This document shows positions 24,001 through 33,000 of a DNA stretch of 64,000 bases, piece after piece; position 1 is the stretch's first letter; every line of letters begins with the position of its first letter. The stretch is from Candidatus Pampinifervens sinense. GTDB lineage: Bacteria > Aquificota > Aquificia > Aquificales > Aquificaceae. The position numbers were made by a program. The DNA lies in the NCBI GenBank assembly GCA_037927135.1, contig JAXSPP010000001.1:64001-128000 (forward strand), written 5' to 3'.

Positions 24001-27000
24001 TCCTTGAGCTTTTGGAAGGCAATAAAAAGACTGTCTTTGATGCGCCGGAGGGTGAAAGGGTGTTGGGCTGGAAACCGGAGGATATGGATTGGATGTATCC
24101 AAACATAGGAGAGGATGAGGTAAACGAGCCCGTGGACATAGGCACTGTGCTTGAATCCTTGCCGCACCCCATATGGATGTTCTACCTACCAAGGATATGC
24201 AATCACTGTACTTACCCCGCCTGCGTTGCCGCCTGCCCAAGGCAGGCCATATACAAAAGGGAAGAGGATGGCATAGTCCTTATAGACCCAGAAAGATGCG
24301 AAGGCTATCAGGAATGTGTAAGGGCATGCCCCTATAAGAAGACCATGTTTAACTTTGTGGCGAGGATATCTCAGAAGTGCATAGGCTGTTTCCCAAGGGT
24401 GGAAGAGGGGCTTCAGCCTCAATGTGTTATAACATGCATAGGCAAGATAAGGCTCATGGGCTTTATAAGCCCACCGGAGGAGGCAAGGCCAGACAATCCT
24501 ATAGACTTTTTGGTACATATAAAGAAGGTTGCCCTCCCCCTATATCCTCAAACGGGGCTTGAGCCAAACGTCTATTACATACCACCCATAAACGTGCCCA
24601 TTAAGTTCCTCAAACAGATGTTTGGCGATGGTGCAGAGCATGCGGTAAAAACCTACATGGCCATGAGGGAAGGAAAAGAGCCAGAGCTTCAAGCCCTTCT
24701 GCATCTCTTTGGCTCCACGCCAAGGATACCATACTCCTTTGCAGTGGGGCCAAAGGAAGTTATAGCTTACGATGAGAAGGGTAAGGAGATAGTTAGAGTG
24801 CCCCTTGTGGAACCTCTTCAAATAAGGCCTCACAAGGACGAAAGGCTTGAGGTTGTAAGGCAAGACATACCTTGAAGGAGGTGAGCCATGATAGTTATAA
24901 AGTTTTTAGTTTTTGGCTTGCTTTTACTTAGTTTTTCCTTTGCGCAGGAACTCATATCCAAAAGGGTTTCTAAGACCACCGTAGACCCCTTTGACAAGGT
25001 ATGGGATCAGGCAAAGGAGGTGGAAGTTCCCCTCTCCGGTCAAGCTGTTACCACACCCATGAAGCTAAAACCTACTGTAAACAGCATAAGGGTAAAGAGT
25101 GTAAACGACGGCAAGTATATAGCCTTTTTGCTTGTATGGGAAGACAAAACCCAGGACAGGTTCCACCTTGTAGATGCCTTTCCCGATGCGGTGGCCATTC
25201 AAATACCTTACAAGCCCTCCAGCGATGTGCCAGTTACAATGGGCGATAAAGGGCAGAGGGTTTTAATACTTCATTGGACAGCATCAAGGGAGGAAGACTT
25301 GGAGCATGGCTATGCGGATGTTTCCAAAATATACCCCAATGCAGTCTACGACTGGTATCCCCACGCCACACCACCCTATAAATATCCAGAGGACTGGGCA
25401 AACCAATATGCCCTTAGCTACATAGGAGGTGAAAAGGTCTTTAGAAAGAACACGCTAAAGACCCCTGTTAGAGAGATAGTGGCGGAGGGTTTTGGTTCTA
25501 CCACATGGAAGGATATACAAGGAGCGGAAGGTAAGGGTGTTTACAAGGATGGAAAATGGTATGTGGTTATAAGGAGGGCTTTTGTGGAGGAGAATACGAG
25601 CAATCCAGATTGGGGACCTGGTAAGACAACCTTTATAACCTTTGCCGTATGGGATGGTTCTACTGGCGACGTGGGCGCAAGGAAGGTGCTAAGCTACTCA
25701 TGGATACCTTTAAAGGTGGAGTGATATGAGTGTATATAAGGCTTATGTTTATAGCTTTCTTTCGGTGGCCTTTTCTTACCCTTCGGAGGAGGTCTTGGAC
25801 GAGCTGTGGGGAGGTCTTGATGACCTCTCCCTCTCTTTAAAGGAGCTTGGCATTGAGTTTGATGTGGAAGCCTTGCGCAGGGTTATAGAAGAGAGTAAAA
25901 GAAGGGTCCTTGACCTCAAGGGAGAATGGACCTCTCTCTTTTCCACCTCTTTAAAAGCCCCTGCCAATGAGACAGCTTATGAGATGGATAAGGCGGCAAG
26001 GAGGGCTTGGGAGCTTGCAGACATAGAGGGCTTTTACAAAGCCTTTGGGCTTGATGTAAAGCCACCAGTGGAGCCAGACAGCCTTGTGGCGGAGCTTGAG
26101 TTTATGGCCTACCTGATAAAGAAGGAGATGTATGCAGAGGAAAGAGGAATGGAGGAAGAGGCAAGGATTGCAAAGGAGGCTTACACCAACTTTTTCAGAG
26201 ACCATCTGGGAAGATGGTATAGGATATTCACAGACCTTGTGAAAGAGAACACGGAGGAAGAGTACTACAAGCTTATAGCTACTCTTTTAAGACTCTTCTT
26301 AGACAACCAAAGGGAAGGTATAGAAGGTATAAAGGATATAGAAGAATACAGGAAGGAAGTGCTGGGAGGCTCCACCTGGAAGTGCGGCTTTTAACTTATA
26401 ATTTTCTCCATGAGCCAGACCTTGGCGGAAAAGTTTTACTACCTTATGAAGCTTGGGAGGGAGTTTGAGATAAGGTGTAAGGAAGAGTATTTGAAGGGGA
26501 ACATATCGGGCTTTTTGCACCTTGCCATAGGGGAGGAGGCGGTGCATGTGGGTGCGGTGGTGGGCTTTGGCAAGGGGGACCTCTTTTGTCCTTACAGAGA
26601 GCATGTATTGGCTTTGGCAAGGGGCATAGACCCAAAGCTCATAATGGCAGAGCTTTTCGGAAAGGCCACAGGCGTCTCAAAGGGTAAGGGTGGTTCTATG
26701 CATCTTTATGAGCCAAAGATGGACTTTTATGGGGGCAACGCCATAGTTGCCGCGCACATTCCCCATGCGGTAGGCGCAGCCTATGCCAGAAAGCTCATGG
26801 GTGAAAAGGCTGGTGTTTTGTGCATATTTGGAGATGGAGCTACAAACAATGGCACCTTCTTTGAAGCTATAAACATGGCCGCCTTGTGGGAGGTGCCCGT
26901 TTTATTCCTCTGTGAAAACAACTACTACGCCATAGGCACACATATATCAAGGTCCTCGGCCATAAAGGAGCTTCATCTAAAAGCGAGGGACTACATGCCC

Positions 27001-30000: not shown

Positions 30001-33000
30001 ACCTTTTGGAGCTGGAAGAAGTTCCAGAAGGTTTAAAGATAGCGGGTGATGACCCTCTTGCCCTTGAGTTTGCTTGCATGTTTGCCCTCATGAATTGTAA
30101 GGTGGAGCTTTACTTTGAAGAGGGAAGCCTTGACTTTATGCATCCCTCCATAAGGGGAAGGCTTTTAAAGATGCTTAAGGATATGAATATAAGCCTTATG
30201 CCTTTATCTGATGCACCAAAGGAAAAGGTCTATTGGATAAAAAGGAGGGTGCCAAACACTAAATGTATAAAGGTAGAAATATCCACGGATGACCTTGGCC
30301 ATATAGTTGTGGACAAAAACTATGAGACCTCTTTGAAGGACCACTATGCGGTGGGTGATGTAAATGGTATAGCGGAGCTTGCCCATGCCAGCAGGGTTCA
30401 AGCCCTCTCTGTGGCAAAAAGGATAATAAAGGGCCAGGGCTTTTTCACACCACCTTACAAAATCCCATACGTTCTATACACCCAGCCCCTATCTTACGCA
30501 AAGGTGGGCTTTACTAAAAAAGAACTTGAAAAGAAGGGAATAGGGTTTAGCGAAAAGAGCGTAAGCCTTAGGGCCTTTGCGGTAGGAAGTATATACCACA
30601 CGGAGGAAGGCATGGCCTTTTTGTACTTTGACAAGAAGGGCTTTTTGCTTGGTGCAGAAGTCTTCTCAAGGGATGCGGGGGAGGTTATAGGAAACCTTAC
30701 AGTTAGTCTTTTCTCCGAGCTGAACCTTGATATGCTTTCAAGGCTTTGCCTTCCACATCCAACCCTTGGAGAGGTGATTTTTATAAGATTATAATTATTC
30801 TTAAGGTGAGAAAGGTTCTTTCCCTTACTATTACAGCCATTGGTCTTTTACTTTTGTTGGGATCCATATCTGTAGCCCTTCTCTCCGTAGGCCTACCATC
30901 GGTGGAAACCCTAAAGGACTGGAAGCCACCTGTGGCCACTGTGGTCTATGATGCCAAGGACAGGCCCTTTGGTGATGTAGCACTGCAAAGAAGGTATTAT
31001 GTAGAGCTAAAGGATATTCCCCTTCATGTAAGACAGGCCTTCATAGCTGCAGAGGACAAAAACTTTTACAAGCATCCAGGCATTGACCCTATAGCCATAC
31101 TGAGGGCCATAGTCGCCAACATAAGGCATGGAGAGCTAAAACAAGGTGCATCCACCATAACACAGCAGCTGGCAAGAAACCTCTTCCTCACACCAGACAG
31201 AAGCATAAAGAGAAAGATAAGGGAGGCTATTTTAGCTCTCAGGATTGAAAGGCATTTTACAAAGGACCAGATACTGGAGATGTACCTCAATTACATATAC
31301 TTGGGACAAGGTGCTTACGGTGTGGAGGCTGCCTCAAGGATATACTTTGGAAAGTCGGTAAAGGACCTAACTGTGGATGAGGCTGCCATCCTTGCCGGCC
31401 TTCCAAAGGCACCCACCAGGTATAACCCATTTAGAAACCCTGAAAAGGTCAAAGAAAGAAGGGACTATGTGCTTACACGTATGTATGAGGATGGATATTT
31501 AAGCGAAGAAGAATATAAAAGGCTGATTGAAAAGCCTATAAATGTAAAGCTTGAAAACAGATACTATGGAATGGATTACTTCCTTGACTTTGTAAAGGAA
31601 TATCTGATTGAAAAGTACGGTGAAGTGGTCCTTGCGGGCGGGTATAAGGTATATACCACCGTGGATAAGGACCTACAGGAACACGCAAGAAAGGCCCTAA
31701 GGAGAGGAATAGAAAGGGTTGCAAGGGCTAACGGTATACCCTTCTTGCCAGAGGATCCTTATGAGCTGGAAAGAAGGTATAAGGAGCAGACTGTAGAAGA
31801 AAAGCCAGGCAAGGTTTATATAGGCAAGGTTTTAAGCGTAGAAGGTGACAGGCTAGTGGTTGAACTAAAGGACAGACAGTATGAGGTGGATAGGTCAAGC
31901 CTTCCTGTAGAAAAGGGAGATTATGTGCTTGTAAGGTTTTACAAAAGTAAAAAAGGTCTAAAGGTGGAGGTGCTTCCAGACCTTCAAGGTGCCTTGGTAA
32001 GCCTTGATGTAAAAACTGGAGCCATAAGGGCAATGGTGGGAGGCTACTCCTATCTTAGAAGTACCTTCAACAGAGCCGTGTATGCCAAACGCCAGCCCGG
32101 TTCTGCCATAAAGCCCATCATATACCTTGCCGCACTTATGAAGGGCTATACCCAAGCCACTCTTATAGATGCTAGTCCAAGGAGCTTTTATGATCCTTCT
32201 ACTGGCAAGGAATGGACGCCAGACAATTACGAAGGTGCGGAGTATGGAAAGGTGACCCTAAGGACAGCCCTGGCCAAGAGTATAAACACGGCTACGGTGA
32301 ACCTCCTTGCAGATATAGGCTTTGATTTACCTATAGAGATAGGGAGGCTTTTGGGAATTGAGCTAAAGCCCTATTATTCTATGGCCCTTGGCAGTATTGA
32401 GGTCACACCCTTACAGCTCACCTCAGCCTATCAGGCCTTTGCTAATCTTGGTGTTTGGTGTAAGCCTTACTTTATAAGAAAGATAGTAGCTCCTGATGGG
32501 TCCATACTGGAGGAAAGCTCCCCTCAATGCCAGCAGGTCCTTCCACCTCAAGAGACGAGGGTTTTGGTTGATATGCTAAGGGCTGTGGTGCTAGAGGGCA
32601 CAGGTGTAGCCGCGAGCTCACTGCAAAGGATAGTGGCTGGAAAGACTGGCACCACAAACGATTATATGGACGCATGGTTTGTAGGCTTTTCTCCAGACAT
32701 TGTGGCTGGTGTCTGGGTGGGCTTTGATATAAAGAGGAGCATGGGTAAGGGTATGGCTGGAGCAAGGGTGGCCTTGCCCATATGGATAGACTACATGTCT
32801 GTAGCCAGCTACATGTATCCATATAGAGATTTTCCCATTCCCGATGGTGTAGTGGTGGTAAATTGTCCACAGCCTATGCTCTTTGTGGCGGGCACAGAAG
32901 GTGTGTGCAAAGGAGAGGAAGAACCCACTCAGAGCAATGAGCTGGAAGGTATAGTGGACCCTAAATACTTAAAAAGGGAAGAAGGGCCAAAGGTGAAGGA

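Follow-up and report, generated by a model that had tools for sequence, protein, structure and literature searches.

In the pyruvate dehydrogenase (PDH) complex, pyruvate loses CO2 on the ThDP of E1, which transfers the acetyl group to the lipoyl arm of E2; E2 then forms acetyl-CoA. To our knowledge, the textbook PDH E3 is not known to pass electrons to an acceptor other than NAD. A type-II (alpha/beta E1) PDH operon has been described in vent Campylobacterota and in Sulfurihydrogenibium, and its E1 is treated in the accessible text of that report (PMC3958643). In a related fold, the NADPH-independent flavin thioredoxin reductases provide a precedent, as presented in the available parts of two papers (PMC8154056, PMC12796991). 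The roles of the NAD-site motifs are set out, again in the portions available, in PMC5817062 and PMC10643123.

Here we describe a PDH-like operon in the window, a 64,000-nucleotide stretch of the genome of Candidatus Pampinifervens sinense (Aquificaceae), whose E3 appears to have lost its NAD(P) site. Our preferred reading, held tentatively and just short of an even call, is that this variant is docked on the complex and works as a dihydrolipoamide oxidoreductase that does without NAD(P), with O2 or a quinone as the most likely acceptor. Two alternatives, in which the variant serves as a relay or as a scaffold next to the canonical E3 of the same cell, together come close to it.

A pyruvate-type operon with its own E3

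Four ORFs on the + strand (26410-30794) encode E1α, E1β, E2 and E3 of a pyruvate-type 2-oxoacid dehydrogenase (Table 1). The operon reported in the survey's finding is borne out by Pfam matches to E1_dh, Transket_pyr/C, lipoyl plus 2-oxoacid_dh, and Pyr_redox_2/dim. Its presence in an rTCA lineage also stands but its novelty does not, as an rTCA-lineage E1 clade was already published in the accessible part of PMC3958643.

Table 1. Positions of the operon genes and of the E2 and E3 features discussed in the text, numbered along the window.
Feature	Position	Strand	Evidence
E1 alpha, 323 aa, pyruvate-type	26410..27381	+	ThDP motif GDG-x26-NN; active-site loop GHS; Pfam E1_dh 3e-81
E1 beta, 325 aa counted from ATG at 27368 (scans began one codon after this ATG)	27368..28345	+	PRK09212; human PDH E1β match
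E2, 409 aa, with a single lipoyl domain (Lys43), two units resembling binding domains, and a catalytic domain (His379)	28335..29564	+	Pfam Biotin_lipoyl, E3_binding (partial), 2-oxoacid_dh
E2 binding unit 1, residues 117-158	28683..28808	+	Pfam E3_binding 4e-6 over residues 119-138
E2 binding unit 2, residues 159-203, putative docking site of the variant E3	28809..28943	+	Conservation pattern, weak fold match
Variant E3, 408 aa, putatively without NAD(P) site	29568..30794	+	AlphaFold, fold comparison, motifs
E3 FAD loop, residues 9-14, one-residue deletion	29592..29609	+	24/24 Aquificaceae and 58/58 Campylobacterota sequences
E3 redox disulfide C41/C46 and flavin-side Lys50	29688..29717	+	Invariant, 24/24
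E3 former NAD loop G160-D-D162-P163, with conserved Glu167	30045..30068	+	Alignment of 24
E3 former second NAD-contact motif, residues 225-227, Gly to basic residue	30240..30248	+	Lys 14/24, Arg 10/24
E3 catalytic His397-Pro-x3-Glu402	30756..30773	+	Invariant, 24/24

The E1α scores just under the cut-off of TIGR03182 (382 against 393.85 bits), and since an acetoin-type E1α taken for comparison reaches 376, this score does not fix the substrate. The E1β lies above the PRK09212 cut-off (346 against 321 bits). The best PDB matches are human PDH E1α (1e-71, with branched-chain E1 at 6e-43) and human PDH E1β (2e-77). The survey had left the substrate unfixed, and these comparisons make pyruvate the most likely one. 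Identity as acetoin dehydrogenase (AcoAB) is not supported, as the E1α in the window has the GHS loop of human PDH; the GHFEGD-type loop, which we take to be the mark of acetoin-type E1α, is present in the E1α that served as contrast (L115). For lipoylation, the genome encodes two lipA above cut-off and three PF03099 matches, none of the latter assigned to this E2.

Apparent loss of the NAD(P) site

The AlphaFold model of the variant E3 (pLDDT 90.6) superimposes on the E3 1ebd_A over 404 residues (Z 41.6, rmsd 2.0 Å) and has the whole high-Mr flavin-disulfide reductase fold, including the interface domain. Its score against TIGR01350 (204.2 bits) is below the cut-off of 408.8. The NAD loop does read G-D-D-P, as had been claimed, starting at G160; it is G-D-D in 23 of 24 family sequences and G-N-D in the other. 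The second loop Gly is replaced by Asp162 in all 24, Pro163 is found in 21, and the third loop Gly survives in only three. At the second position, Gly is present in 58/58 orthologues from Campylobacterota, the sister lineage, and in 228 of 237 other E3-like proteins (Ser in seven, Asp in one). Similarly, the second NAD-contact Gly has become Lys or Arg in 24/24, against Gly in 58/58 Campylobacterota and 231/237 others. No member has an acid at the end of strand betaB; in 23/24 an acid lies one residue further on, which could be a shifted ribose contact and counts against our preferred reading. In the alignment, three NAD(P) contacts are lost together in 24/24, and biochemical loss would be expected to follow. 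The survey's claim of NAD-site loss is well supported, on broader grounds than the survey itself offered, by the loop Gly-to-Asp change with its Pro, the second-motif Gly-to-Lys/Arg change and the betaB end without an acid.

The deletion in the NAD domain, put by the survey at about 40 residues, measures 31-33 in two pieces, a 10-residue loss from the linker in 16/24 and a 19-25-residue loss from the beta-meander in 24/24. It cannot be read as a sign of NAD loss: the meander is likewise short in 17 of the 237 other E3-like proteins, and because these keep the first and second glycine of the loop as well as the second-motif Gly, the deletion alone is uninformative on NAD. Loss of the second NAD-contact Gly had been overlooked, as had the one-residue deletion in the FAD loop. 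The latter, common to all Aquificaceae and Campylobacterota sequences aligned, is a mark of the clade, and in the Campylobacterota orthologues it accompanies an intact NAD(P) loop. The ribose acid Glu31 and the GD motif are invariant. Putative FAD binding would involve a non-canonical loop, which is again a point against the preferred reading.

The catalytic parts were correctly described as kept. In 24 of 24 sequences spanning 52-95% identity there is no change at the cysteines C41/C46, at H397 and E402, in the GD motif or at Lys50 and Glu167 beside the flavin. The variant is under purifying selection (dN/dS 0.07-0.13 in 8/8 pairs), and its former NAD domain gives 0.10-0.19 (7 computable pairs). 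Retained catalysis is supported by these invariant residues and this selection. As the NAD pocket seems lost and the working catalytic parts are kept, electrons may go to something other than NAD; we infer, on this reasoning only, the use of another acceptor.

Distribution, sister lineages and the E2 binding units

The variant was found in 21 of 90 family genomes (19 of the 57 of high quality), and the survey's 29 close relatives followed by a gap to 34% identity were reproduced. In 16 of the 21 it shares a contig with E1α and sits within operon range of it; in one complete genome it is split off the operon, and four loci are cut by contig ends. Variant E3 and E1α occur together in 20 genomes (21 are E3-positive, 23 E1α-positive); where the E3 has left the operon it is still kept, and in one genome a single deletion removed the operon. 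The canonical E3 does lie elsewhere, at C1:132576-133967 (TIGR01350 422.5 bits against 408.8), and is only 28% identical to the variant. It is present in 21/21 genomes with the variant, so no genome forces the variant as sole oxidant. Across the ten 20-kb neighbourhoods read, the operon is not accompanied by any gene for an acceptor. Both observations weigh against the preferred reading.

The Campylobacterota E3 is the sister of the variant (support 100/99). That PDH operon has the same gene order and clade, an E2 with two units and an E3 with the same short FAD loop; in most loci its E1α is 50-57% and its E1β 55-63% identical to those of Aquificaceae. In contrast to the variant, the Campylobacterota E3 keeps GxGAI[GA] in 58/58 with both glycines intact, and Arg/His follows a non-acidic betaB end in 55/58, an NADP-type signature. 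These orthologues also fall under the TIGR01350 cut-off (286-300 bits), and in 3/5 genomes tested they are the only E3 match. In a sister family of Aquificota the same E1-E2 operon recurs (E1α in 26/42 genomes), and the variant's E3 clade is found in 0/42; the operon E3 was absent from 15/15 loci read to the end of E2. As the same E1-E2 is found there without it, the NAD step of this core can probably be carried out by the canonical (housekeeping) E3. The survey's caveat to that effect therefore gains weight, and the operon E3 is dispensable for the core in that family, which is another argument against the preferred reading.

In E2, the lipoyl K43 and catalytic H379 are invariant in 32/32 aligned sequences, as are S121 and A124 of unit 1, which is conserved across all three lineages and probably binds E1. 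The first helix of unit 2 is more identical to Campylobacterota (0.61) than to the E3-less sister family (0.42), whereas the lipoyl, unit 1 and catalytic regions show the opposite pattern. Unit 2 is the best of 396 windows for that pattern, and 0/5000 column shuffles equalled it. Judged by the alignment, unit 2 is conserved only in lineages keeping the operon's own E3. A fold search returned nine known binding domains in the top 50 of 48,161 chains with Z of only 2.9-4.2, and no Pfam match to unit 2 was found in 30/30 members; this resemblance is weak and counts against the preferred reading.

A second E3-like family

A further family of 120 E3-like proteins (P0091/P0322-P0440), deltaproteobacterial in five of the six rows with a taxon name, also lacks the site; we found no published description of it. 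The third loop Gly is absent in 120/120, Pro follows the second position in 98/120, and the second-motif Gly is absent in 119/120. This loss is independent of that in Aquificaceae (AU p 0.0003). Like the variant, these proteins keep CxxxxC and His/Glu (120/120) and stand behind E2 in 8/10 loci; unlike it, they are full length (454-470 aa), have a loop Trp in 91/120 and have lost the flavin Lys in 120/120, so they may work differently. One partner E1α is of acetoin type. If the hosts are anaerobes, O2 would be impossible as acceptor here, which speaks against the preferred reading.

It is conceivable, though we hold it with less than even confidence, that NAD(P)-independent E3s are a real recurring class, refitted at least twice within 2-oxoacid or acetoin dehydrogenase complexes (in Aquificaceae and in this mostly deltaproteobacterial family) so that electrons from the lipoyl groups go to O2, to quinone or to a protein carrier rather than to NAD+. 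If so, they would be the high-Mr counterpart of the ferredoxin-linked thioredoxin reductases, and a PDH could yield acetyl-CoA without NADH.

Possible fates of the lipoyl electrons

Under our preferred reading, the operon product would be a PDH complex on whose E2 the operon E3 docks, probably via the second binding unit. Dihydrolipoamide would be oxidised by the His-Glu pair and disulfide, and the invariant residues suggest that electrons then pass to FAD. With NAD(P) presumably no longer bound, a small acceptor other than a pyridine nucleotide may re-oxidise the reduced flavin at the vacated face: most likely O2, with H2O2 as the product, or quinone, and less likely a one-electron protein carrier. 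NADH could still be made in trans by the unlinked canonical E3. Producing H2O2 at the PDH would burden a microaerophile, and this argues against such a scheme. Historically, an ancestral four-gene operon may have carried an NADP-type E3 like that of Campylobacterota; the Aquificota have a housekeeping E3, and one family would have lost the operon E3 where Aquificaceae refitted it. The hosts, some hot-spring hydrogen-oxidising bacteria, could then make acetyl-CoA whatever the NADH/NAD+ ratio, in a cell living on H2 or sulfur. In another system, PDH is inactivated by high NADH/NAD+, according to the available part of PMC13768988. Besides that, the points in favour of the preferred reading are the joint loss of the three NAD(P) contacts, the invariant redox and flavin residues, the purifying selection, the intact fold, the co-occurrence with E1α, the conservation pattern of E2 unit 2, the sister relation to the Campylobacterota E3, the independent loss in the second family and the thioredoxin reductase precedent.

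A more doubtful alternative is that the variant on E2 cycles between disulfide and dithiol only, handing reducing equivalents of the E2 arm on to free lipoyl proteins of the GcvH or LbpA type. As these would be re-oxidised by the canonical E3 or a lipoyl-consuming pathway, net electrons would still end in NADH or in glycine/sulfur metabolism. Such a relay accounts for invariant Cys/His/Glu beside a dead NAD site and needs no new acceptor. Besides the canonical E3, the genome encodes five members of the GcvH family, two lipoyl synthases and the P subunit of a glycine decarboxylase; the accessible text of PMC6067878 proposes that LbpA is served by a shared E3, and the second family kept its disulfide side with the flavin Lys gone. 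However, the invariant Lys50/Glu167 pair fits electron flow via FAD better than a pure thiol shuttle, and a relay brings no obvious gain because, to go by the sister family, the canonical E3 could act on the E2 arm without an intermediary. We consider it unlikely that the variant itself contributes no redox function and serves either to stabilise the complex or as the dimer partner of a canonical E3 subunit doing all the NAD chemistry. The canonical E3 in every variant-bearing genome, the E3-less sister operons (a core without need of a cognate E3) and an interface domain as conserved as the FAD domain (mean column identity 0.79 vs 0.79) favour this, but a scaffold would not need cysteines, His/Glu and Lys50/Glu167 all to be invariant at such divergence. 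In a heterodimer, the variant's His-Glu would serve and its own cysteines would not, and the two E3s are distant in sequence.

Use of NAD+ (or NADP+) through a remodelled site, by an otherwise ordinary E3 with odd motifs, seems improbable. The Rossmann core and Glu167 are kept, the displaced betaB acid might substitute, and other E3-like proteins tolerate short meanders with intact glycines (17/237) or Ser at the second loop Gly (7/237). Against this, Asp at that position occurs in 1/237 others and 0/58 sisters, and here it is joined by Pro and by loss of the second-motif Gly; a Gly-to-Asp change at the analogous second motif abolishes FSP1 function, as stated in the available part of PMC10643123. 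Far less probable still is a reverse role, in which the variant takes electrons from reduced ferredoxin and keeps lipoyl reduced, in the extreme case for reductive carboxylation of acetyl-CoA via E2 and E1. The host does have ferredoxin-linked 2-oxoacid oxidoreductases (two POR_N alpha subunits), but ferredoxin is acidic and the former NAD domain, with a net charge of -5, is unsuited to it. NADPH-site loss with ferredoxin as donor has a structural precedent in the accessible parts of PMC8154056 and PMC12796991. Nevertheless, with the lipoyl couple at -0.29 V (PMC6067878, available text), we reason that the E1 step would be strongly uphill in reverse, and in two further lineages this E1/E2 pair operates alongside E3s of NAD(P) type.

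Comparison with known systems

The variant resembles dihydrolipoyl dehydrogenase (EC 1.8.1.4; TIGR01350; PDB 1ebd, 2eq6) in its fold, CxxxxC, His-Pro-x3-Glu, GD motif, flavin Lys/Glu and place behind E2, but differs in the G-D-D-P loop, the replaced second-motif Gly, the missing betaB acid, a meander shorter by 21-23 residues and an FAD loop that is one residue shorter. The ferredoxin-dependent flavin thioredoxin reductases (FFTR/DTR) offer a likeness in that they keep FAD and a disulfide, have changed NADPH-site motifs and use another redox partner, as the variant may, as far as the accessible parts of PMC8154056 and PMC12796991 describe them. These enzymes have the low-Mr thioredoxin reductase fold, a CxxC in the second domain and electron flow from ferredoxin to disulfide, whereas the variant is of the high-Mr type, with its CxxxxC in the FAD domain and an interface domain. 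The fold and the CxxxxC position speak against the variant as an FFTR/DTR, as does its TIGR01292 score of 22 bits against a cut-off of 343.

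The operon and its setting

The four-gene 2-oxoacid dehydrogenase operon reported in the survey's finding is present in full, its genes overlapping or abutting on one strand, and the canonical, housekeeping E3 that the same finding placed elsewhere on the contig (C1:132576-133967) is there and scores above the TIGR01350 cut-off.

Genes of the E1-E2-E3 operon (window coordinates)
Gene	Position	Strand	Basis
E1α	26410-27381	+	ORF with expected Pfam domains
E1β	27368-28345	+	ORF with expected Pfam domains
E2	28335-29564	+	ORF with expected Pfam domains
E3 (variant)	29568-30794	+	ORF with expected Pfam domains

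From sequence comparison, the E1 substrate is likely to be pyruvate. Among solved structures, human pyruvate dehydrogenase (PDH) is the best match of both E1α (1e-71, against 6e-43 for the human branched-chain enzyme) and E1β (2e-77 against 5e-57). In its loop E1α has GHS, a form it shares with human PDH; the GHFEGD form, which marks acetoin dehydrogenases, was seen instead in L115, a locus of a second family described below. The model TIGR03182 (cut-off 393.85) left the substrate unsettled, giving 382 for the window E1α and 376 for the L115 protein. The genome also encodes two POR_N alpha subunits, two lipoyl synthases, five GcvH-family proteins, one glycine decarboxylase P subunit and a short ORF of the citrate-synthase family that would fit a citryl-CoA lyase. 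At the lipoyl motif of E2 (window 28452-28466), Glu precedes the Lys in all 10 Aquificaceae E2 sequences and in 5 of 11 from f2, a sister family in the Aquificota; Campylobacterota have Asp there.

Directly upstream (window 20298-26394, +) lies a four-gene DMSO-reductase type II operon (molybdopterin, Fe-S, heme b, chaperone), whose alpha gene has a twin-Arg leader at 20298 and a frameshift after codon 55; in a second genome, G050, this gene is open at the frameshift site but broken further along. As an electron sink the upstream, nitrate-reductase-like operon was rejected, because it adjoins the variant operon only in these two genomes among 11 variant neighbourhoods. CstA, considered as a pyruvate importer tracking the operon, does not discriminate, being present in 50 of 58 genomes; in five genomes of the same genus (L027, L028, L031-L033), cstA and a cytochrome c oxidase-like operon (identified by eye) lie a few genes away. 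In the neighbourhoods read, the operon is accompanied by no partner gene, and a sigma-70 promoter scan gave nothing usable (three sites, with 5.9 expected by chance). A search of RNA runs yielded small shares only. Of four runs aligned to the region, two gave one read each; the third gave 291, nearly all less than 90% alike and mostly from the upstream operon, with a sense-strand depth of 0-1.8x over E1 and E3. In the fourth, an assembled run, a deep contig spans the operon, but the flanking genes are deep too, so the contig may be of DNA origin.

Features kept and lost in the variant E3

The predicted structure of the variant E3 (pLDDT 90.6) superposes on known E3s along the whole chain (Z 41.6, rmsd 2.0 Å, 404 residues). 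We aligned 24 Aquificaceae variant sequences (21 genome loci and the protein matches P0017, P0020 and P0026) with 58 Campylobacterota orthologues (the loci, 58 of 78, with an ORF above 400 aa) and 237 other E3-like proteins (search matches of at least 400 aa). Both cysteines, Lys50, Glu167, the GD motif and His-Pro-x3-Glu are invariant in the 24 variants, which bears out the survey's finding that the redox disulfide and the His-Glu pair are kept. Its claim that the NAD loop has lost a glycine also holds: the second Gly is Asp in 24/24, followed by Pro in 21, whereas Gly stands there in 58/58 Campylobacterota and 228/237 others. The second NAD motif has Lys (14) or Arg (10) in place of its Gly, which is kept in 58/58 and 231/237. 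The acid that ends strand betaB is absent from every variant and present in 206/237 others; an acid one residue further on, in 23/24, counts against a clean loss. In PMC5817062, GxGxxG is described as binding the pyrophosphate and the betaB acid as favouring NAD; PMC10643123 describes a second-motif Gly as essential, a change to Asp there killing FSP1, of the same superfamily.

The survey's NAD-domain deletion of about 40 residues needs correcting. It amounts to 31-33 residues in two pieces, of which only the loss of the meander is common to all 24, and it is no proof of NAD loss, since the meander is short in 17 of the 237 others as well, and these retain the key glycines. The FAD loop is one residue short in the variant and in 58/58 Campylobacterota orthologues; because the latter keep an intact coenzyme loop, we regard this as a mark of the clade and not as damage. 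Three variant members (P0017-P0019) have only 396 aa, and in P0017 another stretch is missing behind the disulfide helix. A third E3-like protein of the genome (409 aa; L023:5157-6386, equal to C2:57156-58385, minus strand) has a short meander and a GxGxxA loop, and Glu stands where E3s have the flavin Lys; it lies near genes that by eye resemble sulfate assimilation and is patchy in the family.

Selection and distribution

A pseudogene or decaying gene was rejected: the frame is open in 21/21 genomes and Nei-Gojobori dN/dS is 0.07-0.13 in 8/8 pairs, with 0.10-0.19 for the former NAD domain in the seven computable pairs. Of 90 family genomes, 21 carry the variant and 23 carry E1α; 20 have both. 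The exceptions are G052 (contig end), G060 (incomplete), G071 (incomplete, its E1α being distant) and G070. In G070 an E1α remnant is fused to the C-terminal 32 residues of the variant (L210:3981-4493), a deletion scar which indicates that a single event removed the operon. In the complete genome G083 the variant lies about 290 kb from E1-E2; the E2 of this split operon (L208:7603-8847) keeps the catalytic His but not the Asp and Arg that flank it and are nearly invariant elsewhere. Genome G054 has, besides the four-gene operon, an E1α-E1β-E2 operon without E3 (L211:3456-6679), either a duplicate or a binning error. Hydrogenobacter thermophilus, a culture-collection species, has a member of the variant (BAI69946.1).

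Related operons with and without a cognate E3

In f2, a family of the same order and probably the Sulfurihydrogenibium family, the E1α of the operon is found in 26/42 genomes at 64-72% identity. No E3 follows E2 in the 15 loci that could be read past its end (of 16 retrieved, one breaks off where its contig ends), and a profile search with the variant found its clade in 0/42 genomes. In 16 of 23 f2 genomes that are at least 95% complete, the canonical E3 is the sole E3 match (up to 14 candidates per genome were scored); the canonical E3 is also present in all 21 variant genomes. Operons without E3 thus imply that the E1-E2 core can most likely be served in trans by the housekeeping E3. Most of the flux may pass through this canonical enzyme.

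The 34% match P0030 led to loci of Sulfurimonas, Sulfurovum, Nitratiruptor and Hydrogenimonas with an identical four-gene order. Their E3s are the sister group of the variant (support 100/99, on 29 rows of our choosing) and retain GxGAI[GA] in 58/58. The betaB end (L034-L110) is non-acidic in 55/58 and followed by Arg or His in 55/58, as in the engineered, NADP-specific E. coli E3 described in part of PMC5817062; by this likeness the loci may encode a natural NADP+-linked PDH complex. The operon-type E3 is the sole E3 match in 3/5 such genomes, and no such match was obtained for 52/81 genomes belonging to one family of Campylobacterota.

Between its lipoyl and catalytic domains E2 has two helical units, the first (residues 117-158) conserved throughout the three lineages. 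In the second (159-203), the first helix has an identity of 0.61 for Aquificaceae against Campylobacterota and of 0.42 for Aquificaceae against f2, though f2 is the closer relative; the lipoyl, unit 1 and catalytic regions have the opposite pattern (10, 11 and 11 sequences). This helix is the top window of 396 and was matched by none of 5000 column shuffles, the three lineages amounting to one comparison. Folded alone, unit 2 finds nine known subunit-binding domains in its top 50 of 48,161 chains, at only Z 2.9-4.2 and below three unrelated small helical domains; its sequence has no Pfam or PDB match (best Foldseek E 5.2). We read unit 2 as a candidate dock of the cognate E3, and its conservation as a sign that the variant is still part of the complex.

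An outlier of the E3 search, P0091, belongs to a large second family (864 matches at E<=1e-60), deltaproteobacterial in 5/6 taxon-named rows. Among the best 120 of the 864, none has the third loop Gly, 98 have Pro after the second position and 119 lack the second-motif Gly; all 120 keep CxxxxC and His/Glu, and all 120 have lost the flavin Lys. Ten of 80 returned loci belong to it: eight have E2 directly upstream (by eye), two are too short, and E1 subunits were confirmed for L115-L117. These E3-like proteins without an NAD(P) loop (L112-L121; P0091, P0322-P0440) have Pro-Trp at that place, are encoded in dehydrogenase operons and often lie beside lipA/lipB. A joint origin with the Aquificaceae variant was rejected (AU p 0.0003).

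Discussion

The variant E3 is real and conserved, and has a second, independent case: its coenzyme motifs are lost and its redox motifs retained, it is under selection, and it co-occurs with E1α. What it does is less certain. Our preferred reading, tentatively held, is that it may act as an NAD(P)-independent dihydrolipoamide oxidoreductase docked on E2. It would bind FAD, dock on unit 2, oxidise dihydrolipoamide and hand the electrons to FAD, which would be re-oxidised by a non-pyridine acceptor, O2 or a quinone being favoured. In reduced cells PDH is limited by NADH, a product that inhibits E3, and the gain would be acetyl-CoA formation heedless of the NADH/NAD+ ratio, which inactivates PDH in another system (in the available part of PMC13768988). 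Ferredoxin is acidic, and so is the former NAD domain (net charge -5), which therefore fits it poorly; moreover, transfer from the lipoyl couple, at -0.29 V in the part of PMC6067878 available, to low-potential ferredoxin is uphill.

The E3-less operons of f2 are the strongest evidence against the survey's reading, in which the variant uses another acceptor or only hands electrons on. The variant might instead only pass electrons on as a lipoyl relay, which is possible but doubtful, or serve as a scaffold or in a heterodimer, which we consider unlikely. Quite improbable is a remodelled NAD(P) site: the displaced acid past betaB speaks for it, and the loss of both glycines in all 24 variants speaks against it. 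Reverse flow seems very improbable.

In textbooks, every lipoate-dependent complex ends in an E3 that reduces NAD+. An E3 that lacks a coenzyme site, keeps its catalytic side, is under purifying selection and occurs in two independent lineages points to another exit for lipoyl electrons. Natural controls are available in the sister enzyme whose NADP-type site is intact and in the sister family that has no cognate E3. If this is true, an NADH-independent or naturally NADP-linked PDH would interest metabolic engineers; if the variant is a relay or scaffold, the finding is rarer but smaller.

The variant is undescribed in the literature searched, from which subscription journals were mostly missing and supplements excluded. 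PMC12780486 nowhere mentions a dehydrogenase in its available part, and that of PMC3917532 treats lipoate in Aquifex but does not bring up this operon. The operon itself is already known: in the available part of PMC3958643, E1α of vent Epsilonproteobacteria groups with Sulfurihydrogenibium and Geobacter, so a PDH operon in rTCA lineages is in print. On its disulfide side the variant is like E3 (EC 1.8.1.4), but it lacks the defining NAD-site features and therefore should not be filed under that number. A functional precedent is found in the NADPH-independent flavin thioredoxin reductases, which are of another fold (PMC8154056 and PMC12796991, each in the part available).
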